A DNA stretch of 64,000 nt from an uncultured virus (IMG/VR IMGVR_UViG_3300045284_000309) (Duplodnaviria; Heunggongvirae; Uroviricota; Caudoviricetes), in IMG/VR virus record IMGVR_UViG_3300045284_000309; one strand, given 5' to 3'. Positions 24,131 through 60,868 of the stretch are shown here, piece by piece. Position numbers and translations under genes: made by a program. Below the pieces are notes generated by a model. It saw only the letters and a list, made by a program, of their open reading frames with translations, did not search any database and had not been told where the DNA came from. Numbering within the stretch: position 1 is the first letter of the stretch; each line of letters opens with the position of its first letter.

Positions 24131-24142
24131 CTCAACCCCTTT

Positions 24143-24451: not shown

Positions 24452-24575
24452 CACCTTTTTTCTCCTTACTCGCTCGTGCAACACGCAGAGCAGCTATTCC
24501 ACTCAGTAGCCCTCCGACTCCAGCAAAGAACGCGCCCAGTCCGACCAGCCAAGCTCCAGACGCCGCGACCAACAT
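24414..24575 (-). CDS. Small TM protein (not in ORF track)
   Basis: MLVAASGAWLVGLGAFFAGVGGLLSGIAALRVARASKEKK; TGATG-coupled to the holin-like gene. Confidence 0.65.
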   Translation of the reverse strand: MLVAASGAWLVGLGAFFAGVGGLLSGIAALRVARASKEKKGDEIAKQSSSTDG

Positions 24576-45438: not shown

Positions 45439-46049
45439 TCGGTAATTTCAGCTTCCTTCGGCTCTGATGCGGTGGTCAGGAGGTTCTCAAGCTGCTCGAT
45501 CACCTGTGCAGCCTGCTCCTGGACTTCAGGGGAAGCTTTCCGTAGTTGCTCGATGATCCCGTCGTCCGTGAAAACCGTGCGGTTCTCGTTGACCTGAAGC
45601 CGTTCCGACTTGGTGGCCTTGCCGAGGCCAGCGCGGTCAAGAATTTCACCAGCGGCCTGAAGGACGATCTTGTCGTCTTCGGCAGAGCGCATGATGTCAA
45701 CCAGGGTCTGCACTGCTTCGATCATGTAATCCTGGAGGAGGTCAAGCGCGGCGGCAGGGAGAGCGGCCCTGAGCATCACGAGCTTCTCTGAGACGGCCGG
45801 ATCGTTGAGCAATTCCGCGATCTGGCTCAGTCCGACATTGAGGATGCGGGCGATCTGCTGTTTTTCATAGCCAGCGATCCTGAGCACGACAACGATGTCG
45901 ATTACGTGATCGCGCTCGCCCGGAAGGAATTTCCGAGAGAGCGTCAGGTTCTTCTTGTACCGACGCCGGATCTTGTCGGCTTCGCGTGATTTCGCTTTGG
46001 CCCGGACTTCCGGCGATCCATTTCCTTTTCTGTAATACTGTGTGGGCAT
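45435..46049 (-). CDS. HTH protein, putative terminase small subunit
   Basis: GYEKQQIARILNV HTH; AVQTLVDIM..LQAAGEILDRAG. Confidence 0.6.
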   Translation of the reverse strand: MPTQYYRKGNGSPEVRAKAKSREADKIRRRYKKNLTLSRKFLPGERDHVIDIVVVLRIAGYEKQQIARILNVGLSQIAELLNDPAVSEKLVMLRAALPAAALDLLQDYMIEAVQTLVDIMRSAEDDKIVLQAAGEILDRAGLGKATKSERLQVNENRTVFTDDGIIEQLRKASPEVQEQAAQVIEQLENLLTTASEPKEAEITE

Positions 46050-46050
46050 T

Positions 46051-47754
46051 TTACGCTCCTGAGATGATCGATTTGTTCATCGCAGATGAAAGTGCGGAAG
46101 GGATCTGAAGCTGCGGGCTTTGAATTGCGGCGACCGAGGCGAACATCCCTGCGTGATGCCAGTGGTCTGCATTTCTGTTCTTCCTCCAGCGGGCTACAAC
46201 GTTCCCTCTGAGGTTCTCCTCCTCCACCCTCACCATCTGCGTCAGTTGATGGTAGAGGCCGTTGTACGGCTTCCCAGGCATCTCCTCGCCAAGCTCTCTC
46301 GCGTCCATCGGAAAGACGGTCACACCGTCGATCATGTCGCGGATGAAACCGTCGAGCGCCATCGTCTTGTCGATGGTCACGTAGCCAGGCTCTCCATATT
46401 TCAGGATGCTGAAATTTGCGGCTTCGTGGGCTTGAGGACGGTCGTCTGAGAATCCGATCCAGAGTCGTCCGTGGTATTTCTGAGCAAGATCGTAACTCTT
46501 GCTTTTTTCAGGGTGCGCATCGATCACTCCTACCCACGATGAGAGAGACATGAGGAATTTGTCGAGATCATCCCACTTGCGGAACGTTTTCAGGTTCCAC
46601 AGCATTTTCCTTTTGTTCTGGCCGAAGTGCCAGCACCAGACGTGAATGACAGTGCCAACGTCGATCCCGACCGAGACGGAGGAATTCGGAAGCCCGCCGA
46701 TCTTGTAGCCCGGTGCCCTGATCTTGTCGAGAAGCTCCGGTGTAATTCTGTCGCCCGAGGCCGTGTAGGGCAGGCCCATGTTTTGATTCCAGAAGCTCCG
46801 GAACATCCGCTCGTCTCTCTGACCCTTGAAATATCCTTGCATGATCTCACGCAAGGGCTGGGTCGGAGAGTTGAACTGTGAAATGTGATAGCCACGGATC
46901 TTCCCGTCGAGGCGCATCGGAGTCCAGCGGCCGTTCGCGTTCAAGCCCGCTCTCTCGTTGTCGGAGATTTCACGATGGCAGAACGCGCACTCAAGGACGC
47001 ATTCGTCGGCGGTGTCACCGAGCTTCAGGTTTGAGTAGTCGAGCGAGGACTCCGTGAAATTCAGAACCTGAAATCTGCCGCATCCGGGACAAGGGACTTC
47101 CCAACGGTGCTGATCGGAGTATTCCCAGGCGTCATCGCCATAGACCCCGTAGCCATCGACGGTCGGAGTCGAGAGAATCACGATCCTTTTGAACGTCGAG
47201 CCATCCATGCGGTGGCGGGCATCGGGGAGATTTTCCTCAACCATGTGATCGCGCTCATCCCAGACCTCGAAATCGACAGGGACTTCCTGAAGCTCGCGGA
47301 GGATGTTCGTCCCTCGGATGTAGAAATTCACTCCGTCGATGGTCTGCTTATGGAGGCGGTTGTCCACTGAGGCGAATTTCATGGAAAGCTGGGGGTTGCT
47401 CTCGATGATGGGGTCGATTCTGGCTTGAACAAACGGGACTGCTCCTGTTTTCAGGGGCAGGAGGTAGAGTCCGTTCAACCGGCGCTCTGCGACGTTGTGC
47501 AAGCTCTTGGTCAGAAAGGTGACCGTGAAGGCCATCTGAGCGGCCTTCGGAATTACAATCTCCGGGCTGTAATCCCGGATCACCTGGCGGACGTACTCTC
47601 GACCTGTAAGGCTGAATGGCTTCCCATCCACCTTCAATTCCATACCGACGGCCCACTCGTCCGGCCTGGCCATCGAGCGGAGAGATGAAAATGAGGGAGG
47701 GGTTGACGCCTGGGGTTCGCTGGAACGCTTCCTACGTGAGGAAACCGGCGACAT
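46051..47754 (-). CDS. Terminase large subunit (lambda GpA-type)
   Basis: PKAAQMAFT, WDERD, LSTPT, VPCPGCG..CAFC, GYHISQF, GIDVG, ADHWHHA. Confidence 0.93.
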   Translation of the reverse strand: MSPVSSRRKRSSEPQASTPPSFSSLRSMARPDEWAVGMELKVDGKPFSLTGREYVRQVIRDYSPEIVIPKAAQMAFTVTFLTKSLHNVAERRLNGLYLLPLKTGAVPFVQARIDPIIESNPQLSMKFASVDNRLHKQTIDGVNFYIRGTNILRELQEVPVDFEVWDERDHMVEENLPDARHRMDGSTFKRIVILSTPTVDGYGVYGDDAWEYSDQHRWEVPCPGCGRFQVLNFTESSLDYSNLKLGDTADECVLECAFCHREISDNERAGLNANGRWTPMRLDGKIRGYHISQFNSPTQPLREIMQGYFKGQRDERMFRSFWNQNMGLPYTASGDRITPELLDKIRAPGYKIGGLPNSSVSVGIDVGTVIHVWCWHFGQNKRKMLWNLKTFRKWDDLDKFLMSLSSWVGVIDAHPEKSKSYDLAQKYHGRLWIGFSDDRPQAHEAANFSILKYGEPGYVTIDKTMALDGFIRDMIDGVTVFPMDARELGEEMPGKPYNGLYHQLTQMVRVEEENLRGNVVARWRKNRNADHWHHAGMFASVAAIQSPQLQIPSALSSAMNKSIISGA

Positions 47755-47814
47755 TGGCCCTACGAGTAGGGACTGGGCTGGGGGCGAAAATGGAGCAAGC
47801 TGAGAAGTCTAACG

Positions 47815-47852
47815 AAAAAAGGGCCGAGCCTGGAATTACCCAGACCCGACCC
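47815..47852 (-). terminator. Intrinsic terminator upstream of the terminase gene
   Basis: GGGTCGGGTCTGG..CCAGGCTCGGCCC followed by TTTTTT. Confidence 0.75.
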
Positions 47853-48064
47853 AGTTCCAGTCCGTGCCGTCTGACCGCGAGGAGAAGCGCCGTCTGACGA
47901 GGGGATCCTAGCAGATGGAGCGAAGCTCGCCCAACGTACTCCTTCTATATAGGAGGAGGATAAAGAAGGATGAAATTAGAAGGGGGCAGGTTCCCTTCAC
48001 GAGCAGCGGACGGATGTGGTTTGGTGCTCATGTCGGGAACCTGCTGGGGCTGAGCATATAGAGA

Positions 48065-48280
48065 CTAGCTGCTTTTCAGGTGCCCGCCTTTCTTGTAGAT
48101 CGAGTTGGCCTTCTGGCGGACTGTATTTCCTGTTCCTTTCTCCTCGGCCTTGGCTATGAAAATCCGGGTGCCCTCCTGGTAGCCGTACTCTGAGATGAAA
48201 TTCTTGAAGGCTTTCTGAGTGCCTCTGGGTTGGGCTGAAATCAGGAAAGGCAGGCGCGGGGTTTTCTTTCTGGTTTTCAT
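48065..48280 (-). CDS. Basic hypothetical protein
   Basis: AGGAGG RBS; 71 aa, Lys/Arg-rich. Confidence 0.7.
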   Translation of the reverse strand: MKTRKKTPRLPFLISAQPRGTQKAFKNFISEYGYQEGTRIFIAKAEEKGTGNTVRQKANSIYKKGGHLKSS

Positions 48281-48354
48281 TTTCTCCTCCTGGGCCAGGT
48301 GAGGACGAGTGCGCAGGCGAGGCAGAACACGAGCAGGATGATGAGGACGGTCAC
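48277..48354 (-). CDS. 25-aa TM peptide
   Basis: MTVLIILLVFCLACALVLTWPRRRK; overlaps both neighbours by 4 nt. Confidence 0.55.
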   Translation of the reverse strand: MTVLIILLVFCLACALVLTWPRRRK

Positions 48355-48587
48355 TTGGGCGGCGGGAGGATCTTTGTGATTTCAGTGTCCTCTAGCTCGT
48401 CCGTGAGGAACCAGCCGACGATCTTGTTGAGCCGTTTTCCCATCTCTTGACATTCGGGGTCTTGTTGAATTTGAAGCCAATGGGAGATCATTTCAGAAGC
48501 ACCCATGAGACGGCCGACGTAGAAAGGAAAATGAGGGTCTTGCTGAAGATCTTCTAGGTCGCGCTGTTTTCTTCTTCGTCTCATCAT
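48351..48587 (-). CDS. Hypothetical protein
   Basis: Probable start MMRRRRKQ just after the upstream stop. Confidence 0.6.
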   Translation of the reverse strand: MMRRRRKQRDLEDLQQDPHFPFYVGRLMGASEMISHWLQIQQDPECQEMGKRLNKIVGWFLTDELEDTEITKILPPPK

Positions 48588-48591
48588 GGGG

Positions 48592-48807
48592 TCATGAAAG
48601 GGGGAAATTAGGCGTCTGGTCGAAATTGATGAAATATTCAAAGCCGTCCACGAGTTTTTCATCCGGTGGTAGCACTCGGCCGGTCTTTGTTTCTTGAATA
48701 TGGCTCGTGAAATTGATTCCCCAGCAATTTTGGAGAGACTGCCGGATTGATTCTGGCGTCTCTCCAGGCTCGATCTGAAATACACCGAGAGGGTACAGCT
48801 TGATCAT
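48592..48807 (-). CDS. Hypothetical protein
   Basis: ATGA-coupled 71-aa ORF. Confidence 0.6.
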   Translation of the reverse strand: MIKLYPLGVFQIEPGETPESIRQSLQNCWGINFTSHIQETKTGRVLPPDEKLVDGFEYFINFDQTPNFPLS

Positions 48808-49061
48808 GAGGCTTTTTCCTGGAGAGTCGTGCGCTGGAGGACTTGCAGGGCGATGTCGAGATCATGCAAAGCCCTGGCGTAGTTTTCAGAAGCACCAGGA
48901 GAGGGCGATTGCCGCTTGTCCTTCGAGGCTTTGAAGGCGGTGTGGGCTTTCTTGACGTTTTCAGATGCGTCCTGGTAGTCATTTTGTGGATTTCGCTGGC
49001 CGGATAGGACGCTATCCACTCTGCGAGCGATCTCCCGTTCGTCACTGTTCATGTGAATCAT
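48804..49061 (-). CDS. Hypothetical protein
   Basis: First ORF of the leftward unit after the non-coding gap. Confidence 0.55.
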   Translation of the reverse strand: MIHMNSDEREIARRVDSVLSGQRNPQNDYQDASENVKKAHTAFKASKDKRQSPSPGASENYARALHDLDIALQVLQRTTLQEKAS

Positions 49062-49930
49062 GGTAGCAAAAGGGTCAAATCCCAGATTTTTTCCCCAAAA
49101 ACAATTTCCTCGGATGTAATTCTAAATAGACCCAGGGTTCCAGTGTAATTGCAAATAGTCCCTGGGCCTCGGTTATGAAAATACGGTGTTCATAAGTGCC
49201 CCGCTGAACGAGCCGCCGGTACATCTCGTGAAATTCACATTCTGATAACATTTTTTTGGCTCAACCATGCGGTTGTAAAGACGAAATTCATGATTCTTTA
49301 CAATTTCATTACGACCAAAGTGCCTGCAAATCGATGGTTTCGGTCGGAGGACGGGATTTCAACACGGGGATTGCCAGTGCGTTACCGGGAATGAAAACAC
49401 CCGCTCTGGGAAGGGTGAAATTCGAGGGTTCTGGACGGGGTTTCCAGAGGGTGTTGCCAGTGATGAAATTGGTAAGTGTCCTAGGGTCGTAACCCTGATG
49501 TTTCCTAGGGATTCAGGTAGGGATTTCGGGGGATTGCCCGGAGAGGTGAGACTACGTTTCCCGATTTCAGGGTTCAGGAGATTTCACTACGGCCGTCCTA
49601 GGGGTTCCCATAGGGTCGCAGAGGGTTCTATCAAGTCTTCCGGCCCGGTAGGTTTCGATGAAATCTAGGGGGGATTTCAGGGGTTCTGGCGCATGGATAG
49701 ACGGTAACGACCCTAGGCTACTTTCAGGGGTTCGGCGCCGATGAAATCTAGCCTAGTTGCCGACTGGGGAAACAGGGGTTCTAGGACGGTGAAATCCGGT
49801 TATCGTCCTACGGTCGTTTCCAGATACCGGATCCGTAGGGGGGATGAAATTCGGAAACCCATCGGGGGATACCGGCCGGAATCTTCGCGCATGGAAAACA
49901 CGGGGAAGACTTGACACGGTACAATGCAGC
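49062..49930. other. Long non-coding divergent region with short imperfect repeats
   Basis: No credible ORF; TTTCAGGGGTTC x2, GATGAAATCTAG x2, several CCTAGGG. Confidence 0.6.
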
Positions 49931-49957
49931 TTCGCTGCACTTTTGCAGCGGGGCGAA

Positions 49958-50078
49958 CTTTGAAAACTCAGGTAGCGAATCCGGGCGAAACCCCGCCTGT
50001 TGACCACGGCCGAAAGTAGGGGGTTACTAACCCCCATTTGAACCGGCTGATGCGCGCTATCTGACTGACCTTTGAAAA
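49958..50078 (+). ncRNA. Structured leader RNA between two boxA-like CTTTGAAAA motifs
   Basis: Closing stem TCAGGTAGCG (49968-77) / CGCTATCTGA (50055-64); internal GGGGGTT/AACCCCC hairpin. Confidence 0.55.
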
Positions 50079-50089
50079 TTACGAATAGA

Positions 50090-51463
50090 CCTGAAATCCT
50101 GCCCTAGCGTTTCATTGAATCCCCCTACGGCCGGAACGATCCAGTTCCCCCGAATCCATCCGGATCCGGGTTTCCTAGATCCATCCGACAAAAAAGGTGG
50201 TTACATGAAAACGTACGGCAGAAACACTCACCAGGGGTTCATCGCCGAACAATGCGAAAGTGGCAAGTCTCAATCGGAGGCTTTCGCCACACTTGAACCG
50301 CTGGTTCTGGCTCAGATTGAGCCGATGATTTTCACGCGAAACCCTGATCGTTCTATGGGGGAATCGCATCGCATGCCGAAGCCGATGGCGCAGCAATTGC
50401 TAGACCTTCGCAACGCTATCGGCCGGATCTATTCCGCGATTGAGCGGGATAGGGCCGGAACGGGTTCTACCCGCCAGACTCGGACGATTGTTGAAACCGT
50501 GGAAACGGCCGAAACTGAAATCGTCGAATCACGGCCGGTAGCGTCAGGAAAGCGCCGGATCGAGACTGAACTGGAAAAGATGGAACGTCGTCTAGATGAA
50601 ATCTCCAGGTTCTGTCAGTCTCGCAACGAAACGGATCCGATCGATGAAATTGGAATGCGGCCGTATGAAGCGGCAGGCAGACTGATTCCCCGTGGTGTTC
50701 CGGCCGATGCGATCCTATCGGCTATCTCGATTCACTGGTCTAGAGATGCCCGGCAAGATGCGGGTATCGCAGACTTCGATTTCACTGCGTTGTCCAGGCG
50801 GTTCATGGATGAGCAAAACTGCGAATCCTACTGGCGCAATGAACGTGGCCAGACTGAACCGCTACACGAGATGTTCGGCTACGTGCTAACGCTTGCGCAA
50901 GCTCGCCAGCCGATCTATCTCTACGGAATCAAAGGTACGGGGAAATCCCATCTTGCGAGACAGCTTGCAACGTACCTAGACCTGCCGTACGGGGAAACCC
51001 CGCTATCGGCTGGCGCAAGCCGTGGCGACCTGCTAGGCAGGCTTACGGCAAGCTCTGAACGGCCGTTCATCCCGGCGAAATTCACGCAATGCTACTCAGG
51101 TGGCGGCGTGTTCAATTTCGAGGAAATGGACGCGGCTCTAGCCGAAATGATTATCGTCCTGAATAACGCATTGGCCGGTGATTATTTCGAGAATTCCATG
51201 TCCGGGGAAGCGCTCAATAAGAGCGAGAATTTCATCCCCGTGGCAACGGCCAATACCCTCGCAATGGGGGCGAATTCAAAGTACATCCGCGAGCGTTTGG
51301 ACGCGGCAACTTTGGACAGATGGAACCCCGGCCGTGTCGAAGTGAAATTCGACAAAAAACTCGCGAAGCACATGCTTTACAAGCATAGTGGCGGAGTGAA
51401 AAACAGCTAGATCATTGCGGCTGTAGGGGGATTCAATAAAACGCTAGTAAGCGGGATTTCAGG
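50090..51463 (+). repeat. Long imperfect inverted repeat (50090-50146 / 51405-51463) enclosing the AAA+ gene
   Basis: CCTGAAATCCTGCCCTAGCGTTTCATTGAATCCCCCTACGGCCG versus the reverse complement of CGGCTGTAGGGGGATTCAATAAAACGCTAGTAAGCGGGATTTCAGG. Confidence 0.9.
50205..51410 (+). CDS. MoxR/CbbQ/CobS-like AAA+ ATPase
   Basis: GIKGTGKS, FNFEEMD, LNNAL, ATANT, LDAATLDR; AAGGTGG RBS before ATG 50205. Confidence 0.9.
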   Translation: MKTYGRNTHQGFIAEQCESGKSQSEAFATLEPLVLAQIEPMIFTRNPDRSMGESHRMPKPMAQQLLDLRNAIGRIYSAIERDRAGTGSTRQTRTIVETVETAETEIVESRPVASGKRRIETELEKMERRLDEISRFCQSRNETDPIDEIGMRPYEAAGRLIPRGVPADAILSAISIHWSRDARQDAGIADFDFTALSRRFMDEQNCESYWRNERGQTEPLHEMFGYVLTLAQARQPIYLYGIKGTGKSHLARQLATYLDLPYGETPLSAGASRGDLLGRLTASSERPFIPAKFTQCYSGGGVFNFEEMDAALAEMIIVLNNALAGDYFENSMSGEALNKSENFIPVATANTLAMGANSKYIRERLDAATLDRWNPGRVEVKFDKKLAKHMLYKHSGGVKNS

Positions 51464-52423
51464 CTGAATTACACTGGATTGGGAACCCCTTCCGACTAGA
51501 AGGGATTTTCCAATGACTAAGAGCAATGAGAGCTACTTTCAGATCGATTGGTTCGATTACAAAAAGATCTTGAAATCGACCGTCCTAGACGGTAAGGCTC
51601 CGACACTGAATAACGCAAACACGACGCGGAGTTTCGCAACTCATGTTGCGGATTCCGGTAGCTGGCGCGGCTATTCAGATGGGCAATTGAAGCGGTGGAT
51701 TTCAGAGGGTTACACTCCCCCTGAAATGGTCGGTGGTTTGAGTAACCTCATCCCCCCGATGCGTGAAAAGAGTCGCACGATTTGGAACGAAGATGGCGAT
51801 GAATTTCATGTTGACCGCGCGATGAGTGGAACGGACAATTTCATGTCCTCTCAGTCTCGCCGGGAGGTTATCCCCGGTCTAAAGATTGAGGCCGGAATCA
51901 TGTTTAGTTCGGCCACGAATCACACTGTCGTCAACAATTACACTATCTGGCTTTGCAAGGTATTGTTCTCACTCGAACAAAGTGGAATTGATACTCAGCT
52001 TACGCTCGATTTCCCGTCATGGGAAAGTGTAAATGACTCGTCGCGGAAACGTGCCGGAACGTCAGGCGCGACCCTATATCACTCAGTAGTCAGAGTGAAA
52101 AAAGAGGGTGAGATTTCCGATTTCAAGTCATGGTCGGCGATGGTATCCCCGGCAGCGCTGCGCAACTTCGGTTTCGGGGCTATCTGCCTACATGCGAATG
52201 AAATAAATGGAACCCCTAGCGGTTCGATGGGTAGGGGGGTTCCGGAACGTCACGAATGGAAACTTGTATGGAATGAGGAGAGGCGAGTTTTGATCGTTGA
52301 AAACGCCTACACTTCTTCATCGTTTCCGGAATCCAAAATGACGGCCGACTTGAAAGCCGTCATGCAAAAGGTTAGCGGCAAGACTCAGTAATTTCATCGG
52401 GGTTTCCATCCAGTGTAATTCGG
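51464..52423 (+). repeat. Inverted repeat (51464-51489 / 52399-52423) enclosing the partner gene
   Basis: CTGAATTACACTGGATTGGGAACCCC / GGGGTTTCCATCCAGTGTAATTCGG: 25 pairs including 2 G-U, plus 1 bulge. Confidence 0.9.
51513..52391 (+). CDS. AAA+ partner protein (vWA/CobT-like, divergent)
   Basis: Follows the MoxR-like ATPase; GDEFHVDRAMSG, LEQSGI, VKK, P...R..GF pattern. Confidence 0.6.
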   Translation: MTKSNESYFQIDWFDYKKILKSTVLDGKAPTLNNANTTRSFATHVADSGSWRGYSDGQLKRWISEGYTPPEMVGGLSNLIPPMREKSRTIWNEDGDEFHVDRAMSGTDNFMSSQSRREVIPGLKIEAGIMFSSATNHTVVNNYTIWLCKVLFSLEQSGIDTQLTLDFPSWESVNDSSRKRAGTSGATLYHSVVRVKKEGEISDFKSWSAMVSPAALRNFGFGAICLHANEINGTPSGSMGRGVPERHEWKLVWNEERRVLIVENAYTSSSFPESKMTADLKAVMQKVSGKTQ

Positions 52424-52441
52424 ATCTATCTTCAAGATTTC

Positions 52442-52477
52442 AGGGCGGCTCTCGCGAGAGGGTCGCCCTTTTTTTTC
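52442..52477 (+). terminator. Intrinsic terminator
   Basis: AGGGCGGCTCTC-GCGA-GAGGGTCGCCCT followed by a T run. Confidence 0.9.
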
Positions 52478-52500
52478 ACGATTTCACGAATTACCTTCCG

Positions 52501-52524
52501 CCCGGTGCCAGCCGGGTTTTTTTT
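52501..52524 (+). terminator. Second tandem terminator
   Basis: CCCGG..CCGGG followed by T8. Confidence 0.7.
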
Positions 52525-53078
52525 GTGCTTTCATGTTGTCAGAACGGGCAATTACCAATTACAGGATCCTGTTGCCAAGCCTGGCGATTATCGATTTCAA
52601 GGATCGAATGGGAAACCGATTTCAGGGTGGAATCCGTTTTCAATCCAAAGTGAAATGTTCGCATGTCGGTGCTCGTGAAATTTCACAATCGATTCGTCGC
52701 GGGTTGTCTGGCAATGAAATCCTGGTTATTCTGGGCCGGTGGGCGGGAGTTGGTGGGCCTCGTGGGGAAGCCGTGAAATCGCTTCTACCGTGCTCAGGCT
52801 CGTGGCCAGGTGGGAACCCTCACCAGACGGCCGGAAGCCGTTAGACGGGCTTAGAGAGGCTTGCAGCCATGCGGGTTTGCGAAGCACTTGCCCCTGTGAG
52901 GCTCTGTAAGCCGTTCTAAGAGGCTGGGTTGGCCGGATGACCTGGGAGTCGCATAAGGTGGTCAGAGGCGCTTAGAGAGGCTTACAGGGGCTTGAAAAAG
53001 GTGGGCGGCATGAGCGCTGGCGTCCGGCGTGAAACTCGGCGTGGAAAGGTGCCGCACTCGTTTTGATAGTTGGGCGCG

Positions 53079-53112
53079 AAAAATAAAAACCCCCGGCGTG
53101 AGCCAGGGGTTT
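53079..53112 (-). terminator. Intrinsic terminator of the leftward early region
   Basis: AAACCCCTGGC..GCCGGGGGTTT followed by TTATTTTT. Confidence 0.8.
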
Positions 53113-53138
53113 CGATGAAGCCGGGATGCAGAACGGGC

Positions 53139-53660
53139 TTAGATCAGCCGCGCTCCGGACGGCCTTCTGAAAAAGCCGAAGTGCGGATTATCGGGAGAGG
53201 GCTTGAGCGTGGCGGTGAAAACGATGTTACGGCCGTGAAGCTCGGAGGGCATCTTGATTTCGGCCGACTCGTGAATGTTCGCCGGGACGGTTCCCCAAAC
53301 CTTGTTACCGTCGATCAGGCGCACCGTCATTTTCAGCGAGTCGCCGTAATCGCTGCTGTGCCACTTGGTCGAAAGGATCTCGCCGCTGAATTCCCGCTTG
53401 CCTGCCACGAGATCCGGCGCACCCTGTGAAATCTCCTCGTCGGCCTTCTTCGTCTCCGCATGATGCTTCGCGGTGCGCATCCACTTTTCAGTTGCGGCCT
53501 TCTGCCCTTTAGTGAGCGAGCCGAACGTCTTGACCGCCGCCTGCATGTCGCGCAGAAAATCGTGGCAGTCGTCACCTTGTGAAAACAGCCAGGAGACAAG
53601 CTCGATATTTTCGAGCCGCCACTCATTCGTATCCTGCATCCTCTGTTCGTGCCGTGTCAT
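53139..53660 (-). CDS. Hypothetical protein with C-terminal OB-like region
   Basis: F..DM......GSLT.GQ motif; KVWGTVP..FGFFRRP; own promoter and RBS. Confidence 0.75.
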   Translation of the reverse strand: MTRHEQRMQDTNEWRLENIELVSWLFSQGDDCHDFLRDMQAAVKTFGSLTKGQKAATEKWMRTAKHHAETKKADEEISQGAPDLVAGKREFSGEILSTKWHSSDYGDSLKMTVRLIDGNKVWGTVPANIHESAEIKMPSELHGRNIVFTATLKPSPDNPHFGFFRRPSGARLI

Positions 53661-53697
53661 GAGTCAAATTTCCTTTCGCGTGTCGGAAGCTGCGACC

Positions 53698-53726
53698 ACC
53701 ATACAGGCAATTTCCTTTCCTGTCAA
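53698..53726 (-). promoter_or_regulatory. sigma70-type promoter
   Basis: TTGACA-17-TATGGT. Confidence 0.8.
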
Positions 53727-53754
53727 GAGCAATCTTGAAGGTTTCCTAAGAACG

Positions 53755-53779
53755 AAAAGAGCCGCCTTGCGGCGGCTCT
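53755..53779 (-). terminator. Intrinsic terminator
   Basis: AGAGCCGCC-GCAA-GGCGGCTCT followed by TTT. Confidence 0.75.
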
Positions 53780-53807
53780 CGTGGAGCGGTGGAGCGTGGG
53801 AGGGATT

Positions 53808-54044
53808 TCAGAAGCCGCCCTCCATGAGATGACCGCCGTAGGTTCCGATCTTTTCATCGCGAGCCGCGAAGTGATCGGACGTTCCCATGACGGCCTTGTA
53901 AAACTTGCCACGGTCGAAGCGGGGATTGTCCTGGGCGAACGTGTCAGCGAGTGAAAGCGTGAGGCACCACACGACGCCGGTTTTGTCCTGGGCGAACGCG
54001 GGAGCGAGAGTAGCGGCGATCTTGGCGTAATCCTTCATGGTCAT
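53808..54044 (-). CDS. Hypothetical protein
   Basis: MTMKDYAKIA..LADTFAQDNPRFDRGKF; AAGGAG RBS. Confidence 0.75.
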   Translation of the reverse strand: MTMKDYAKIAATLAPAFAQDKTGVVWCLTLSLADTFAQDNPRFDRGKFYKAVMGTSDHFAARDEKIGTYGGHLMEGGF

Positions 54045-54079
54045 TGCAATTTCTCCTTGTTGTCGGAAGCGATGGAACC

Positions 54080-54109
54080 ACCATAGCACGAATTTCCTTC
54101 CGGTGTCAA
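54080..54109 (-). promoter_or_regulatory. sigma70-type promoter
   Basis: TTGACA-18-TATGGT with TG extension. Confidence 0.8.
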
Positions 54110-54427
54110 GGGCGATTGCAAATTACCGTTCCGGCGTCTGAGAGAGCCGCATCGGGATTGCTGCAAAGCTTCGGAGCGCTGCAAAGCCATTCGCGCCAGG
54201 TGCCGACGAAGTGCGAGCCGTACGGATGAATTTCAGACCAGCAATGCCAGCCGAGCTTCATCGCCTGGATGACGTGAAAAAGAGTCATAGCAGGCCCGCT
54301 ACATACAAGCTCAGGACTGCAATGATGAGCGAGAGCAATCCGAGTGCGAGCGATTGCGTTGTCTTGTTTCCCGGCCTCACGCAAACAAGGAAAAGAGCGG
54401 TGAGACAGGAAAGAACGATGGCGATTT

Positions 54428-54622
54428 TCATGACCGGCCCTTCATGTCAGAGAGTGAAATTACAGCCTCGCGCATTGCCTCATGCTCCGCTGCCGCGCTT
54501 GACGGCTCCAAGAGCATCACCGGCTTTTTGCGCTGCCGGTAGCGCCAGTCGATTTCAGCCACGACGCCGACCATGACGACGGCTGCGACAACAACCAGGA
54601 GAGCGGCGAGGGAGGCGGTCAT
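54428..54622 (-). CDS. Small membrane protein
   Basis: MTASLAALLVVVAAVVMVGVV hydrophobic N-terminus; ATGA-coupled. Confidence 0.6.
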   Translation of the reverse strand: MTASLAALLVVVAAVVMVGVVAEIDWRYRQRKKPVMLLEPSSAAAEHEAMREAVISLSDMKGRS

Positions 54623-54792
54623 GCCCGCCCCCCTGAAAACGCCTTTGGCGCTATCGCCGTGCTCGTGTCGATAACGAGCCAATCGCCCTTGATGTTGTAA
54701 TTCGCAAAATCAAGCGCGGCATTCTCGCTTGAAAACGGGCCGACTAGCTCCGGAAGATCATACCCTCCGGTGAGTAGGATGAACCAGGTCAT
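54619..54792 (-). CDS. 57-aa hypothetical protein (not in ORF track)
   Basis: MTWFILLTGG..LVGPFSSENAA; ATGA overlaps at both ends. Confidence 0.6.
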   Translation of the reverse strand: MTWFILLTGGYDLPELVGPFSSENAALDFANYNIKGDWLVIDTSTAIAPKAFSGGRA

Positions 54793-55199
54793 GCCCGCCC
54801 CCCGTGCTTCTTTGAAATTGTCGGCATCGACCGGCGAACCTGCTCGCTTGAAAACGAGTAGGTATGCATGAAATCGCGCTCGCGCCGTGTGAGCTTGGCA
54901 GTCGTCTTCCTGATCGCGGCTCGCGCAACGCGGGCGAGATCGGCCAGGTATTCCATGCGGATCTGAAAAGCCAGAGACGGCTTCGGAAGCTCGCCGTTTC
55001 CCTTGACCGGCTCGCGGTCGATGTGTGAAAACGTCTCGCGGTTCTCGATCACGCCGAGAAGGTCGAAGCGCACCGGCTGCTTAGCGGCCAGCTTGCGGGC
55101 CTTCTGAGCCGCCAGGTGAAGCTCGCAGGCGTAGACGAAACCGCCGCCGTACGTGAAGGTGCATCCGCACCGCTTGCCTTTGACCATTAGCTCTACCAC
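54789..55199 (-). CDS. Hypothetical protein
   Basis: CGC..CELH; GAAGGA RBS. Confidence 0.7.
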   Translation of the reverse strand: MVELMVKGKRCGCTFTYGGGFVYACELHLAAQKARKLAAKQPVRFDLLGVIENRETFSHIDREPVKGNGELPKPSLAFQIRMEYLADLARVARAAIRKTTAKLTRRERDFMHTYSFSSEQVRRSMPTISKKHGGRA

Positions 55200-55234
55200 T
55201 TGAATTTCCTTCCTGTCGGAGTGCTATCTCCAAC

Positions 55235-55264
55235 AGCGTATCAGACCCTGGGCCTATTGCGCAA
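55235..55264 (-). promoter_or_regulatory. Promoter with CCCAGGG spacer box
   Basis: TTGCGC-18-TACGCT; shares CCCAGGGTCTGATAC with 57786-57814. Confidence 0.6.
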
Positions 55265-55284
55265 GGGCAGTTAGGAAATTCGTA

Positions 55285-55710
55285 TCAGGGGAAGGGAAAC
55301 GGCTCTCTCGCCCCGCTGTGGCAACCGGAAGCTTGAGAGCCGTACCCTCCCCCCTTTTCCCCCCAGCCCCTCCGGAACGGGTCGGTGAACCCGGAGGACG
55401 GAGGGAACCTAGCAGCTTTTCAGGGCAGATACAACTTCCCCTGGTTGGGCGGTGTTTGACTTCTGTCCTCTGAGTCCGGGGTTTGGAGAGAAAGCGCCCT
55501 GTTCGCATATGGAATTTCAGCCCCCAGCCGGTCATCGTGGCGTAAACCGCTCGATCTGCCACCGGCCACCGTCTTTTACGATTTTGCCCATACCTACGGT
55601 GCCTGCTTGAAATTCCTTATCTGTCGGCCCGACTCTCTCGGAGGTTGTCGGGCATCAATTGAAATTCATGGTGAGCCTCGCGTGTTGCGGGTTTATTCTT
55701 GTCGGAAGTG
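55285..55710 (-). ncRNA. Candidate ~430-nt structured non-coding RNA
   Basis: Own promoter at 55716-55744; several stems; no convincing ORF. Confidence 0.45.
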
Positions 55711-55715
55711 ATGCG

Positions 55716-55744
55716 ACCCTACAGGATCGCTCAGAGCGTGTCAA
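55716..55744 (-). promoter_or_regulatory. sigma70-type promoter
   Basis: TTGACA-17-TAGGGT. Confidence 0.7.
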
Positions 55745-55747
55745 GGC

Positions 55748-55825
55748 AAAAAGAAAGGGCCGGGGGAGTCTCACCTTGAACCCCGGCCCTTCCGCCTAGC
55801 TCCTTCCGACAAGAAAGGATTTCGT
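55748..55825 (-). ncRNA. Candidate trans-acting antisense sRNA
   Basis: Promoter at 55831-55859; seed AUCCUUUCUUGUCGGAAGG; 11-bp terminator stem (55755-65 / 55781-91) plus U-tract. Confidence 0.7.
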
Positions 55826-55830
55826 TGACC

Positions 55831-55859
55831 ACGGTAGCAGCTTACGGGGATTGTGTCAA
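55831..55859 (-). promoter_or_regulatory. sigma70-type promoter for the sRNA
   Basis: TTGACA-17-TACCGT with TGn extension, overlapping the 3' end of ORF 55842-56117. Confidence 0.75.
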
Positions 55860-56117
55860 CCCCTGCTGCTCGATCACATGCAGAGCGGCCGTGAAACCGT
55901 CCAGCCACAGGGATGCAAGCGTAGCGGCGGCTCCGACTGTCGGCCGGATTTCAGGGGATGCCATCAGGATCATTCTGGCCCGCTGAGTCGCGCAGTATTG
56001 AGCCGATTCCATATCCACACCCATCGCCTCGATCCCCTTGAAAAGATCCTGGGAGGCGTCGGCCAGGGCATCATTCATGCGGACGGCCGCAAAGATTTCC
56101 TCGCCGGTGATTTTCAT
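55842..56117 (-). CDS. Hypothetical protein
   Basis: ATGA-coupled 91-aa ORF. Confidence 0.7.
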   Translation of the reverse strand: MKITGEEIFAAVRMNDALADASQDLFKGIEAMGVDMESAQYCATQRARMILMASPEIRPTVGAAATLASLWLDGFTAALHVIEQQGLTQSP

Positions 56118-56467
56118 GACTTGCGCTCCATGTTGAAGCTCTCGGCCAGGCCAGAAGTCAGCGCCTGAATTTCAACGAGCATACGCTCGTCATCCGTGAG
56201 CGTACGCCAGCCTACCGGCTCCGGTGAAAACATCGTTCGGTCAATGGCCACGACATCGCCAATTGAAATCGAGCGGCCTTCATAGCCCTTGGGCGGCGTC
56301 ATGACTTCATCGACCCGCTGAAAACGACGCCAAACGTCGTCAACGGTGAAGCTCCGATCCGGGAAAGCGTCTTGGCTGTCCTCGACCCAGACAAGCTTGT
56401 AATTCGCGCTGTCCTTGAACCCCATGCAGGTCTGAACAAACGGGGCTTGATAGATTGCGATTTTCAT
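56114..56467 (-). CDS. YodL-like domain protein
   Basis: IYQ..YKLVW..F...P.GYEGRSISIGDVV..VGW. Confidence 0.8.
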   Translation of the reverse strand: MKIAIYQAPFVQTCMGFKDSANYKLVWVEDSQDAFPDRSFTVDDVWRRFQRVDEVMTPPKGYEGRSISIGDVVAIDRTMFSPEPVGWRTLTDDERMLVEIQALTSGLAESFNMERKS

Positions 56468-56599
56468 TTAGGCTTCCTTTGCGCACGGCTCGCAAACGCA
56501 AGCCGTGGTGAGTAGGGGAGTCTTGAAAAAGAACCAGTTGCGCAGGGTGAAGGTGCCGCACCCATCGCATCGCGCTCTTTTGTTACAGAGTTTCCACAT
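56468..56599 (-). CDS. 43-aa Zn-finger-like protein
   Basis: MWKLCNKRARCDGCG...CVCEPC; GAAAGGG RBS. Confidence 0.65.
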   Translation of the reverse strand: MWKLCNKRARCDGCGTFTLRNWFFFKTPLLTTACVCEPCAKEA

Positions 56600-56600
56600 T

Positions 56601-57008
56601 TCAACCCTTTCGCTGTCGGAGGTTCTTGCACTTGCGGCATTGCCTTGTGCCGGTGTCCGGACGAATGTAGACGTTTTCATCCGAAAGCAAATGGCCATTG
56701 ACGCAATGCGTTTGTCGAGCCTTCATTGCCACGAAATTTTCACCACGTAGAAGGTTCTCCTGGTGCGTCACAGGCTCGCAGTGAAAAGGATTGGCGCAAG
56801 CTCGCTGTCTGCACAGATGGTCAAGCTCCAAGTCTTCCAGGATCGGCCCGATAACAATTTCATACATGACTCGGTGAGTCAGACACGTTCGCCCTTCGAC
56901 GCTTATCGTGCCGTAGCCCCTGTCAGACTTCGCGCCGCGCCATAGCCAGCAGTCCCATTCGCCACTGGCTACTGAAATTCCCTCCACTATACGAGCTTCC
57001 AGATTCAT
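56601..57008 (-). CDS. HNH endonuclease
   Basis: CWLWRG..GYG..HRVMY..LDHLC..CANPFHCEPVT.QEN; THCVNGH..RQCRKC. Confidence 0.92.
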   Translation of the reverse strand: MNLEARIVEGISVASGEWDCWLWRGAKSDRGYGTISVEGRTCLTHRVMYEIVIGPILEDLELDHLCRQRACANPFHCEPVTHQENLLRGENFVAMKARQTHCVNGHLLSDENVYIRPDTGTRQCRKCKNLRQRKG

Positions 57009-57048
57009 CAATGGCACCTTGCCCGCTTCTCGCAGAGCTTCCACATTT

Positions 57049-57426
57049 TCAGTAGTCGCTCGGTCGGAGGATTGTGGTCGTTTCGCGCAGCCAGACCTTA
57101 TCCGTCCAGGCCGCATCTGAAATTACCCAAAGCTCGATACCCTTGACCGTGAACGAGCTTACGATCCTTGCGCCGGATTTCACGGAAAGATCGTTCTGCC
57201 TTGCGTCGTGGGCATCGACCTCGCCCCAATCGCCGTTGACGTGGCGAAGGAGAAGACCCTGCATCGCTGTCTGAAATTCTTGCGTGTCCGGGATTGCATC
57301 GACAATCTCGTTGTAGGCTCCGCTCGCCATCGTGACGCCAGACTTGAGGATCGAAAACCGCGAGCCTGAGACGACGCTGGAATTGCGGCGGATTGCCCTG
57401 GGATCGTTCGGCCCTAGAACAGTCAT
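57049..57426 (-). CDS. Conserved mobile-element-type hypothetical protein
   Basis: LLRHVNGDWGEV..D..N..G.RI.S.F..LWVI..TTILRPSDY. Confidence 0.75.
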   Translation of the reverse strand: MTVLGPNDPRAIRRNSSVVSGSRFSILKSGVTMASGAYNEIVDAIPDTQEFQTAMQGLLLRHVNGDWGEVDAHDARQNDLSVKSGARIVSSFTVKGIELWVISDAAWTDKVWLRETTTILRPSDY

Positions 57427-57749
57427 GATGCGAACACCTTGCGGCACTCGCCCGCGATCTGAAATTCGTTGCAGCGCTCTTGCGAGCCAGCGGCACCGCA
57501 GACGTTGCAGACGACTTGACCGACCTCGGTCTGAAATGCTTCAAGCTCTCCGCGCTTCGTCGGAAACGCACCGTAGACGATGCCGGACGTGGAAACGAAA
57601 TACTCGTCCGCTTCGTCTTCGGTGTTGTAGGCCCACCATCCGGAATCGTACTGATAGCACGACGGATCGACGGGCACCCATGCGTCCAAGGCTAGCTCGA
57701 CGGTAGCACCGTCCTTGAGCGCCGCCTTGACCGTTGCGCCTGTATCCAT
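57423..57749 (-). CDS. Hypothetical protein
   Basis: GAGAGG RBS before ATG 57749; C-terminal Cys motif. Confidence 0.7.
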   Translation of the reverse strand: MDTGATVKAALKDGATVELALDAWVPVDPSCYQYDSGWWAYNTEDEADEYFVSTSGIVYGAFPTKRGELEAFQTEVGQVVCNVCGAAGSQERCNEFQIAGECRKVFAS

Positions 57750-57785
57750 GAGGATTTCCTCTCTGTCGGAAGTGTTCATGCCGAC

Positions 57786-57814
57786 AAGGTATCAGACCCT
57801 GGGATGATTGTCAA
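57786..57814 (-). promoter_or_regulatory. sigma70-type promoter with CCCAGGG box
   Basis: TTGACA-17-TACCTT. Confidence 0.8.
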
Positions 57815-57831
57815 GAGGAAATTGTAAATGT

Positions 57832-58215
57832 TCACTCGCTCATGTCCCACTTGGCGAATTCGTCTTCCAGCTTCTGAAATTCACTCTGGGCTTCGGCAAT
57901 CGTGCCGTAGATCCAGATATCACGAAAACCGCGATCATCGGTCGTGACAATCCAGCGATCAACGCGGTAGAAGTGTCCGGTACTCGGGCAATCGACGTTC
58001 CCGGAGATTTCATCGGTAAAGCCGTGCCCGTAGAAGGCTTCCAGAGCGTCCATGATCGTTTTCACGGCCGGATCCAGCTTCTGGGCCTCGGCTACGATCT
58101 GGGCCTTCGTGGTGGCAGGAGTGCGGCTCTTGAAATCAGCCGCACTCTCTGCCTCGCTCGCCCACTGATGAGCGTCCTTTGAAAACTGTGCCCAAGGATC
58201 AGGCATCGTCGTCAC
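57832..58215 (-). CDS. Hypothetical protein
   Basis: 127-aa ORF overlapping the upstream gene. Confidence 0.7.
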   Translation of the reverse strand: MTTMPDPWAQFSKDAHQWASEAESAADFKSRTPATTKAQIVAEAQKLDPAVKTIMDALEAFYGHGFTDEISGNVDCPSTGHFYRVDRWIVTTDDRGFRDIWIYGTIAEAQSEFQKLEDEFAKWDMSE

Positions 58216-58483
58216 TCATCGCTGCGGCCATTTCCTTCCGCGCCCATTGCGCGAAGACGATGGCCACCGGAGCACCCTGCATCGGCCCTGGCGCGATCCG
58301 CGTCACCTGTGCGCAGTGAAAAGCGATCAACTGCGCGATCAGGGATTCGCGATCCTCAAGCGGAAATTCGGGGTTCTCGGCAATCATGCGGTCGATGTGC
58401 TCCGTCGCAGGCCCGTCGTTCAAGACTAGCTGGCGGACTTCCGTCCAAATCTGATCGAGCATCTTATCTCTGTCGTCGCTCAT
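58199..58483 (-). CDS. Hypothetical protein
   Basis: GAAGGAG RBS. Confidence 0.7.
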   Translation of the reverse strand: MSDDRDKMLDQIWTEVRQLVLNDGPATEHIDRMIAENPEFPLEDRESLIAQLIAFHCAQVTRIAPGPMQGAPVAIVFAQWARKEMAAAMSDDDA

Positions 58484-58510
58484 GTCAATTCTCCTTCGTG
58501 TCGGAAGTTT

Positions 58511-58915
58511 TCAGAGTGAGTCGCAGGAACCGTAGATGATTGCATCGTAGTAGTAGGATGATGTGGAAAGGACGCGAAACTTGTCCGCATGGATGAAACC
58601 CATGTCCAGGACGCGGAGCTTGGTGCCCTTAGGAAGATTGAAAATCTGCCCGGTGTCATAAAGCTGCGCAAACCCCTCGCGGTCGTTCGCCGCTGCCGCA
58701 CTCGTGGCTGCATCGAAATCGTCACGGGTGACCGCAAATGTCACGTCCGGCTTTCCAACCCGCGTGACGTTGCCAGTTACACAACTGTCGCTGCTGGATC
58801 CGCTGGCGTTTGAATCGCCGCCGCCCGAAACGTGAGAGAAAACGATGATCATGAGAACGATGAAGCCGATGATGACAAGCGTTCCCTTGGTTGTATCGGA
58901 GTCCTTCTGAGTCAT
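58511..58915 (-). CDS. Membrane-anchored hypothetical protein
   Basis: N-terminal TM LVIIGFIVLMIIVF; LPKGTKLRVL SH3-like motif. Confidence 0.7.
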   Translation of the reverse strand: MTQKDSDTTKGTLVIIGFIVLMIIVFSHVSGGGDSNASGSSSDSCVTGNVTRVGKPDVTFAVTRDDFDAATSAAAANDREGFAQLYDTGQIFNLPKGTKLRVLDMGFIHADKFRVLSTSSYYYDAIIYGSCDSL

Positions 58916-58958
58916 TTGAATTACCTTCCTGTCGGATTGAATTTCCTTCGATGCAGCC

Positions 58959-58989
58959 AAGGTAGCATAATCGTCCTAGGGTCTGTCAA
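58959..58989 (-). promoter_or_regulatory. sigma70-type promoter
   Basis: TTGACA-19-TACCTT with TGn; 20 bp at and upstream of the -35 identical to 57809-57828. Confidence 0.65.
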
Positions 58990-59006
58990 GAGGAAATTGT
59001 AAAGGT

Positions 59007-60011
59007 TTACCTGTCCCACTGCCAGACCCGCTTCTTGATGATGAGTGGAGCATCGTCCGGCCCCTTCACGTAGTCAGCGATGTACTTCTGCCGGTGCATG
59101 CCCAGAGAAGGGTACCACTGGTTGCGCCAGAAGCCATGAACGATGAAACGATGGCTGAAATTCCGCTGTTCGCCCGAAGGCTCGCTCGCCTGCGTCTTGC
59201 GCCGTAGCTCGACTACCAGGATTTCACTGACCGGGAGATTGAGCCGCAGAGAATGCCTCCTGAGGCTCCGTGCGGCCTTGTAACGCGAGCGCGTGACCAG
59301 CTTCTCCCCCATGAGCCGGTTCATCACACGGATGAACAGGAGCGTCGAGGAATGCTTGCCGCCTGTCGTATCCTGCGTCCTTGAAATATCCTCCAGAGGA
59401 ACCGTGAGCGCATGAGCCACAAGCCAACTCGTCTTGGCGATTGAGTCAATTTCATGGAAGGTGTGCGAGTAGTCGTCCTCGTCATCGATGCTCGACCACA
59501 TGATAAAGCGGATACCCATTTTTACTTCCACTGAAATTTCCTCACCGGCCAGTGCCCGCTTGTTTACCTCGCGGTACTCGGCGTCACCTTTGACCTCTGA
59601 AAACGTCATCTCCTCCAGGTGCCATGAAATCGCTCTCCAGGCGACCTTCTTGCCCATCTGATCGATCACAACAAACGGCTCCTCCAGGTAGGCGAAGCCT
59701 GAGCGCAGAAAGAAATCCGACTCGACCACTGTCTCGCGCTCGTTGAAAGAATCCATTGCGTTGTAAACCAGTTCCTGCATTTCACCCGTGACGTAGATCG
59801 GCTCTGCCGCCATCATGTCGGGAAGCGCGTTGACGAAGCAAGCTGCCGACGTGCTCGCTTGAGCCGTCCCATACTTGCCCATGCGATCATCGAGCCAGTA
59901 TTTGAAATATTTTTTTCCCCACTCGGAGGAGACGAAGCCGATGATTTCATGCTGCGCGGAGAGAGCCTTCTCCCACGGCTGCGGAACGTGAGGTTGATTC
60001 ATCGCGCTCAT
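59007..60011 (-). CDS. Conserved phage hypothetical protein
   Basis: C-terminal HRFIVHGFWRNQWYPS..H...YI..YVKGP motif. Confidence 0.8.
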   Translation of the reverse strand: MSAMNQPHVPQPWEKALSAQHEIIGFVSSEWGKKYFKYWLDDRMGKYGTAQASTSAACFVNALPDMMAAEPIYVTGEMQELVYNAMDSFNERETVVESDFFLRSGFAYLEEPFVVIDQMGKKVAWRAISWHLEEMTFSEVKGDAEYREVNKRALAGEEISVEVKMGIRFIMWSSIDDEDDYSHTFHEIDSIAKTSWLVAHALTVPLEDISRTQDTTGGKHSSTLLFIRVMNRLMGEKLVTRSRYKAARSLRRHSLRLNLPVSEILVVELRRKTQASEPSGEQRNFSHRFIVHGFWRNQWYPSLGMHRQKYIADYVKGPDDAPLIIKKRVWQWDR

Positions 60012-60775: not shown

Positions 60776-60868
60776 GCTACCCGCCCCGCTCTCAGGAATC
60801 GAACCTGAGCCTCCACCGTATGTTTCTGGCGGCGCTCTACCTAGCTGAGCTAGAGCGGAGCGGGTAGC
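60776..60868 (-). ncRNA. tRNA-like RNA with aberrant 10-nt anticodon loop and acceptor stem extended to 16 bp
   Basis: TCCGCTC-TA-GCTC AGCTAGGTA GAGC-G-CCGCC AGAAACATAC GGTGG-AGGC-TCAGG TTCGATT CCTGA-GAGCGGG; no CCA. Confidence 0.8.

Follow-up and report, generated by a model that had tools for sequence, protein, structure and literature searches.

Here we show that an operon on the + strand of an uncultured tailed soil phage (Caudoviricetes; IMG/VR record IMGVR_UViG_3300045284_000309), coding for an AAA_5-type ATPase and an adjoining partner protein, encloses each of its two genes in a long-range inverted repeat of its own, and that an exact boxA motif of the type found in ribosomal RNA (rRNA) operons (rrn) stands ahead of the first of these repeats. 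The operon was analyzed within a window of 64,000 nucleotides (nt), the whole stretch of DNA considered here, which is most of a roughly 70-kb phage genome. We regard it as very probable that the helices formed by the repeats are functional RNA elements. The explanation that we favor, and consider probable as a whole, is that they are leader-trailer helices in the style of rRNA, placed around the cistrons of a messenger RNA (mRNA), cut by RNase III and formed with the help of boxA and Nus factors. An earlier sequence-only reading of the window had likened the operon to an rRNA precursor, and the analogy holds, given the conservation of the gene-enclosing helices, the bias of their mismatches towards G-U pairs in the sense RNA and the boxA ahead of them.

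The helix around the ATPase gene (stem A) is by far the best inverted repeat of the window. Self-BLAST pairs 50090-50144 with 51407-51463 (57 columns, 84%, 60.8 bits, E 2e-9), the runner-up reaching 34.6 bits; a repeat search finds 50104-50144/51407-51447 (41 nt, 88%), and RNAduplex forms 55 pairs at -88.3 kcal/mol. The widest limits, those of RNAduplex, place the 5' arm, or leader strand, at 50085-50147 and the 3' arm, or trailer strand, at 51404-51467 (both +), the latter holding the stop codon of the ATPase gene (TAG, 51408-51410). Stem B, around the partner gene, joins 51464-51489 to 52399-52423 (+), its 5' arm directly abutting the 3' arm of stem A. By the limits of self-BLAST its core (51466-51489/52399-52421; 24 columns, 92%, 31.9 bits) starts two bases past the end of stem A, and it extends to 51464/52423 in the minimum-free-energy fold; its 3' arm lies 8 nt past the partner stop codon (52389-52391). 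Taken alone, stem B lacks significance when the whole window is searched (E about 1), and it is its position and its conservation in relatives that make it credible. At about 55 and about 25 base pairs (bp), stems A and B both exceed the length of ~17 bp used as the criterion for a leader-trailer helix. The sequence-only reading had described a complementarity of ~55 nt around the ATPase gene, including its stop codon, and a second, abutting stem around the partner, and had asked for the operon RNA to be folded: both stems are present, and in the fold of the whole operon (2526 nt) both form, stem A with 41 pairs at a mean probability of 0.99 and stem B with 25 pairs at 0.97.

The layout recurs in relatives. 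The protein database holds 146 homologues of the ATPase, many on contigs of 66-77 kb, and 170 loci were taken from viral, genome and metagenome collections, each being scanned against its own reverse complement by self-BLAST at a threshold of at least 36 bits; RNAduplex energy alone was dropped as a scan score, because windows of 79 nt reach -40 to -60 kcal/mol by chance. Among non-identical loci with enough flank, the ATPase gene is bracketed by an inverted repeat in 28 of 31 (the exceptions being L104, L115 and L146) and the partner gene in 29 of 38, the exceptions being L002, where the helix is of 11 bp only, L115, and L008, L025, L141, L143, L145, L146 and L158 of a distant clade. Among 96 control loci (620,528 bases), which have nothing but the AAA domain in common, 6 contain any repeat of at least 36 bits. 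Many relatives carry consecutive enclosed units, up to five, upstream or downstream, and none of the 26 small ORFs (open reading frames) found in these further stems scores above the cut-off of any Pfam family. Across the genomes of three complete relatives (70,178, 66,669 and 68,116 bases), no repeat reaches 36 bits apart from the stems of the operon, 5, 4 and 2 in number, respectively.

The arms are placed with respect to the genes. Paired arms lie 91-1748 nt apart, enclosing ORFs, and neighboring arms are parts of different helices; in most cases the 5' arm ends about 20-40 nt upstream of the start codon and the 3' arm starts about 5-30 nt downstream of the stop codon, a placement that leaves each helix looping out one ORF with its ribosome site. 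At the junctions between stems (n = 48) the median gap is 0, with 37 junctions falling within -4 to +4 nt. Arms in the family have median lengths of 30-38 nt, and the length of an arm increases modestly with that of its loop (Spearman 0.32-0.37). What is conserved is the position and not the sequence, since arms vary both between loci and between genes: the mean duplex energy is -54.7 kcal/mol for an arm with its own partner (n = 95), -14.5 kcal/mol with arms of other loci (n = 475) and -13.6 kcal/mol with a non-partner arm from its own locus (n = 172). As a separate observation, the word GGATTTCAGG (up to one mismatch) occurs 40 times in the window on both strands, where 6 occurrences are expected; copies lie at both outer edges of stem A (50090-50099 and 51454-51463), and relatives have related GAAAT/ATTTC words where their arms end.

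For the working of the operon we propose the following scheme. The + operon would give rise to a single RNA with the layout of a bacterial rRNA precursor: a leader presenting a hairpin and an rrn-type boxA, twice, would be followed by cistron flanks that pair into abutting leader-trailer helices, each looping out exactly one ORF with its ribosome-binding site. Like that of rrn operons, the boxA would recruit NusB/NusE and further Nus factors to the polymerase. With this complex in place, the 5' arm would stay close to the RNA exit channel up to the moment at which the 3' arm appears, abutting arms passing this advantage on to the next helix. Closure of the helix would take the 5' arm out of local pairing and free the ribosome site, and a cistron would be translated best once fully transcribed. 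Host RNase III would cut the duplexes of 25-55 bp to give single-gene mRNAs, the 5' and 3' ends of which would stay paired and hence be sheltered from exonucleases. We infer the cutting because long RNA duplexes are known substrates of RNase III and because there are precedents in other phages; processing of the helices into single-gene mRNAs by this enzyme is a step towards which we lean, if only slightly. Genes for RNase III or an RNA ligase are not found by Pfam among the 63 ORFs of the window.

The step in which the helix would control translation can be followed by folding. The Shine-Dalgarno sequence of the partner gene is sequestered by a local hairpin (51487-51504, +) that pairs CCCTTC (51487-51492) with GAAGGG (51499-51504) around a CGACTA loop and has 3 nt in common with the 5' arm of stem B. 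This hairpin had been noticed from the sequence, together with the suggestion that long-range pairing competes with it; the hairpin exists as described and the competition is supported in silico. When the 3' arm is added to the fold of the cistron, the unpaired probability rises from 0.002 to 0.44 at the partner Shine-Dalgarno sequence, from 0.13 to 0.55 at the partner start codon and from 0.04 to 0.67 at that of the ATPase gene. For 85 stems modelled locally, the value for the ribosome site is 0.377 with native 5' arms and 0.445 with shuffled ones; thus, native arms occlude the site more, and do so in 60 of the 85 stems (p 3e-6).

The opening of the ribosome site by the 3' arm, the greater occlusion by native 5' arms and the fact that arms lie tightly outside the ORFs are also what would be seen if the helices were never cut and served as structural clamps, insulating the cistrons, holding each stop codon near its own start, gating translation and shielding the ends; the closed loop would, in that case, favor re-initiation. 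Moreover, the 16S leader-trailer helix is essential independently of RNase III (PMC10250234). However, the effect on the ribosome site is a modest one for a structure whose role would be to gate translation. In addition, bacteria that possess RNase III cut near-perfect RNA duplexes of 25-55 bp, which makes long-lived uncut helices unlikely. We therefore consider clamps of this kind rather improbable, and processing by RNase III remains part of the explanation that we prefer.

A short leader motif, TTCCGACA, is found at the same ribosome sites. On the + strand it lies at 50184-50189, where its TCCGAC form and the AGGTGG Shine-Dalgarno sequence of the ATPase gene together occupy 50184-50200, and at 51490-51496; on the - strand it lies at 53681-53688, 54061-54068, 55700-55707, 57764-57771 and 58499-58506. 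Before several early genes of the - strand it follows the -10 box of sigma-70-type promoters (TTGACA, 17 nt, TATGGT) by 9-14 nt and precedes start codons by 10-25 nt, and in the + operon and many relatives it is also found 3' of the 5' arm. The TTCC of TTCCGACA can pair with the GGAA of a Shine-Dalgarno sequence to form a small hairpin, which at the partner gene is the one at 51487-51504. The motif recalls the start-associated sequences of Cluster K mycobacteriophages.

In its sequence, the putative leader of the operon has the order of an rrn leader, with boxB, boxA and then the leader strand. One or two boxB-like G+C hairpins (GCAGC-TTC-GCTGC or GCTGCA-CTTT-TGCAGC; 49926-49949, +) lie upstream of the first boxA copy, GAACTTTGAAAACT (49955-49968, +), which contains an exact CTTTGAAAACT core at 49958-49968. 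A second copy, CTTTGAAAATT (50070-50080, +), differs from this core by one base and stands 9 nt ahead of the first long arm. Between the copies lies a non-coding unit of ~95 nt (49969-50063, +) closed by a 9-bp helix (49969-49977/50055-50063), for which the fold of the whole operon gives 8 pairs at a mean probability of 0.99. The leaders of L002 and L107 show a G+C hairpin ahead of boxA at the same place and a closing helix of 8-9 bp between the copies at the same position, and the sequences of these elements differ in all three loci. Over all its 14 nt the first copy agrees with the rrn leader of Priestia megaterium without a mismatch, and its 11-nt core recurs unchanged in those of Bacillus subtilis, P. 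megaterium and Peribacillus simplex, as represented in plasmid-collection records. Four metagenome-assembly genomes (three Planctomycetota and one Acidobacteriota) have CTTTGACAATT upstream of 16S, which differs from the window copy at 50070 in 1 of 11 positions. A repeat scan of three of these rrn operons places the start of the 16S leader-trailer helix at or inside boxA in two, one from a Planctomycetota and one from an Acidobacteriota assembly, and finds no helix in the third (L176).

In the family, the motif (G)GACTTTGAAAAYT emerged from an alignment of the sequences upstream of the first arms in chains. It stands 3-10 nt before the arm in 18 of 42 stems that are first in a chain, against 1 of 52 that abut another stem or are nested (background about 0.01 per window), some of the "first" stems being first only through a contig cut or a sub-threshold stem upstream. 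Allowing one mismatch, the motif occurs 8 times in the 64,000-nt window, against 2.1 expected, and two occurrences are exact (49958-49968 and 50070-80). The order boxB, boxA, leader strand fits a model in which NusB-bound boxA retains the leader strand by the RNA exit channel until the trailer has come out as well (PMC10250234). Regulation by boxA also reaches beyond rRNA (PMC5725501).

It is possible, nevertheless, that the motif before the first arm is a promoter element, read by a phage or alternative sigma factor, or the site of some other protein, rather than a boxA that binds Nus factors; the helices would then still be RNA elements, with no link to rrn antitermination. In line with this, a sigma-70 scan and inspection of the region upstream gave no convincing promoter for the + operon, and a one-mismatch copy (58506-58516, -) is found directly before TTCCGACA, where -10 boxes sit at other early genes. 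Against a promoter element, the match to the rrn boxA of Bacillaceae is exact over 11-14 nt, relatives show, by inspection, no conserved second hexamer at promoter spacing, a hairpin precedes the motif as in rrn leaders, and the copies are in tandem with a helix-closed unit between them. We hold a site other than boxA to be unlikely. That the boxA copies of the favored scheme work through Nus factors is, on the basis of these sequence features, a serious possibility that we stop just short of calling probable. An N-like protein was not found by Pfam in the window.

Three further observations concern boxA. In the minimum-free-energy fold the first copy (49955-49964) pairs weakly, over 9 bp, with 52431-52441, just before the first terminator, a pairing that would close the whole operon and that may be due to chance. 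In one Acidobacteriota rrn operon, boxA likewise lies within the 16S helix. In G009, the record of locus L009, three tandem boxA-like copies occupy ~500 nt ahead of the first stem (24007-24482, - strand), which suggests that some leaders contain repeated modules of boxA plus a short enclosed unit, like the 95-nt unit of the window.

The level at which the repeats act is indicated by their mismatches. In 87 clustered stems, 118 of them are G-U pairs when the sense RNA is considered and 42 when the antisense RNA is, while a further 79 are transversions, and stem by stem 50 lean to the sense strand and 6 to the antisense strand, with 31 ties (both tests, p about 1e-9). Before clustering the counts were 124 and 49, and in 69 of 95 stems the sense duplex was the more stable of the two. 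With a keto content of 0.525 at four-fold degenerate sites and of 0.501 in loops, a mutational bias between the strands does not account for a ratio this close to 3 to 1. The bias towards the sense strand thus argues, if indirectly, that the pairing is selected in the sense transcript, and from the comparison of loci we conclude that selection on the helices acts through the sense RNA.

Superficially, inverted repeats of 20-57 bp around single genes resemble terminal inverted repeats, and G-T mismatches would be tolerated in single-stranded DNA too, as expected if the repeats acted in DNA, as the ends of mobile cassettes, as sites for the inversion of single genes or as hairpins or cruciforms in single-stranded replication intermediates. 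Yet each pair has its own sequence, as seen in the duplex energies of wrong partners (-13.6 to -14.5 against -54.7 kcal/mol), and such unique arms exclude a shared recombinase or transposase site. The partner gene is on the strand of the ATPase gene in 59 of 59 matches, and strand-changing joints, which would have revealed the DNA inversion between the arms that the sequence-only reading had named as fatal to an RNA function, are absent from three DNA runs, in which one 191-nt skip (49516-49708) was seen. Pfam finds no transposase or invertase among the 63 ORFs. Moreover, the arms respect start and stop codons, keep within a single transcription unit and have mismatches that lean to the sense strand. 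A mobile element with terminal inverted repeats, or an invertible segment, was rejected on the strength of the unique arms, the constant orientation and the missing enzyme, and we think it very improbable that the repeats have any function in DNA of the kinds listed. Finally, that they are a chance or neutral by-product, as might be supposed from the 31.9 bits and E of about 1 of stem B, is practically negligible in view of the E of 2e-9 for stem A and of a layout present in 28 of 31 and 29 of 38 related loci and in 6 of 96 controls.

Several results weigh against the rRNA-style scheme. Deviations from perfect pairing had been taken, from the window alone, to favor RNA over DNA; this was not borne out, because the mismatches of stem A include 2 G-U pairs on the + RNA and 3 on the - RNA, and its duplex is marginally more stable on the - strand (-91.1 against -88.3), the bias being visible only across the family. 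Compensatory changes, proposed at the same time as a check, number 92 double Watson-Crick, 58 single and 11 other, and are partly circular unless the stems are positional homologues, in that any two internally complementary repeats show them, so that the counts serve as illustration only; positional homologues do show double changes, such as 5 between L009 and L135, to be read with the same caution. As no promoter was found for the + operon, the boxA copies and the first arm are only presumed to be transcribed, and the boxA motif precedes only 18 of the 42 first-in-chain arms. The effect of the 5' arms on the ribosome site, besides being modest, is purely thermodynamic. The boxA match concerns the rrn leaders of the genomes compared and cannot be tied to the rrn operons of the phage's own host. 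Lastly, L104, L115 and L146 are stemless in spite of a full-length ATPase gene and enough flank, the ATPases of L104 and L115 being as similar as those of stem-bearing loci and that of L146 having 30% identity, and the distant clade (L008, L025, L141-L146, L158) retains the gene pair without stems. Helices are absent from the stemless loci even at a lower threshold, and the partner gene is present wherever the contig extends far enough; the clade that keeps the pair without stems indicates that the helices are not needed for the proteins as such.

The closest parallel to the operon is the rrn operon itself, in which a hairpin and boxA are followed by the 5' strand of a long-range helix, with the 3' strand placed after the enclosed RNA, and in which several units are enclosed per transcript by helices that vary in sequence and keep their pairing (PMC10250234). 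Unlike in rrn operons, the loops of the phage helices hold protein genes with ribosome-binding sites instead of rRNA, the helices abut with no spacer or transfer RNA (tRNA) between them, and boxA is found only at the head of the chain. Since the loops hold the ATPase and partner ORFs, and Rfam gives no family match in 46000-60000, the helices can be said to work like the rRNA leader-trailer helix family without being members of it. In phages T7 and T3 and in the Bacillus phage SP82, RNase III processes polycistronic early mRNAs at local hairpins between genes. As in these phages, host RNase III would turn a phage operon transcript into single-gene mRNAs with structured, protected ends, but the two strands are here separated by 250-1700 nt and a whole cistron is enclosed. 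An intercistronic hairpin of the T7/SP82 type was considered and rejected, as the arms stand 91-1748 nt apart around ORFs.

The N leader of lambda carries an RNase III site, and so resembles the present leader in combining boxA and a hairpin with an RNase III-sensitive structure near a translation start. The nut sites of lambda likewise present, in a phage transcript, a boxA and a hairpin of the sort that would engage host Nus factors (PMC10250234). They differ in that the hairpin-then-boxA order is here that of rrn, and in that the helices enclose genes rather than forming a leader hairpin. Pairing between the 5' and 3' untranslated regions of a single mRNA occurs in hbs of B. subtilis. The ends of the icaR mRNA of Staphylococcus aureus also pair, affecting translation and RNase action (PMC3868564). 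Both are single genes with short interactions, unlike the array of 25-55 bp helices headed by boxA. Correia repeat enclosed elements of Neisseria are transcribed inverted repeats that RNase III can bind and cut (PMC2649163), but they are multi-copy and mobile, with one repeat sequence and short loops, whereas the phage pairs are unique and enclose genes.

The genes of the operon are the only Pfam-annotated genes of the window on the + strand, all others being on the - strand. The ATPase (401 residues from the ATG at 50205; 50205-51410, +) matches Pfam AAA_5, of the MoxR/CobS-like ATPases (3.7e-10), and phrog_249 (1.4e-26), and weakly matches CobS among solved structures; its start is supported by homologue alignments that begin at residues 1-12. 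The partner (292 residues; 51513-52391, +) shows a weak similarity to Pfam DUF7192 (5.7e-5, under the curated cut-off), and its gene always adjoins that of the ATPase in relatives. Two intrinsic terminators (52442-52469 and 52500-52517, +) end the operon, at the place where the sequence-only reading had seen terminators in tandem. Metatranscriptome contigs from one run (X3, Logan) cover 50173-50785, 50768-51359 and 51480-52279, all inside the two loops; being assembled contigs of one RNA study, they cannot show ends, gaps in their cover are not evidence, and the library may contain DNA. A gpA-type large terminase (46054-47754, -), portal, capsid, baseplate J, a Mu gp48-like protein, DnaB helicase, DnaE polymerase and several cell-wall hydrolase domains, including CHAP, NlpC/P60 and amidase, are also annotated by Pfam. 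The nearest virus record, G001, is a fragment of 22.6 kb without the operon region.

Elsewhere in the window, the segment 49250-49900, between the terminase operon and the boxA leader, is non-coding and contains repeated units, for example CAGGGGTTC...GATGAAATC (49725-49748 and 49773-49796); regulatory sites, an origin or a packaging site may be located there. ARAGORN finds a tRNA-like gene at 60783-60859 (-) with a four-base anticodon (aaca) and no amino acid assigned. Internal direct repeats (5358-5649), of about 70-75% identity with a longest alignment of up to ~211 nt, lie in a 415-residue ORF (5128-6372).

As for the host, there is no close isolate: the terminase has at most 25% identity to that of any isolated phage, and searches of isolated phages with the ATPase and with the terminase give only distant matches. 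Scans of genome contigs yielded matches to the AAA domain only, in Planctomycetota, Acidobacteriota and other assemblies. There are hints of a Bacillota host in the Bacillus type of boxA, in the strength of the Shine-Dalgarno sequences and in the presence of CHAP, NlpC/P60 and amidase domains. The type of boxA may in this way serve as a clue to the host lineage of uncultured phages, pointing here to Bacillus-like hosts.

In rRNA operons, leader-trailer helices and boxA couple transcription, folding and RNase III processing. The components seen here, namely boxA, leader-trailer helices and the RNase III processing of phage mRNAs, are already known; literature searches, in which supplementary files were not opened, found no description of their combination, gene by gene, around protein cistrons. 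Tentatively, a family of soil phages may have turned an mRNA operon into a pseudo-rRNA operon, in which an exact rrn boxA of the host type, with its boxB-like hairpin, would bring the antitermination and chaperone complex of rRNA to the polymerase and so assist the zipping of each helix; a closed helix would restrict translation to complete cistrons and at the same time provide the site at which RNase III releases a message with paired ends. The stemless loci are natural comparators for what the helices contribute, and the operon offers a compact natural system for long-range helix formation behind the polymerase and alongside translating ribosomes, in a layout that is also a portable design for insulating cistrons in synthetic operons. 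If the scheme is true, it would be the first time that the pathway of rRNA maturation is put to systematic use on protein-coding RNA, one gene after another, and it suggests that the machinery of rRNA transcription and processing can be recruited for mRNAs.

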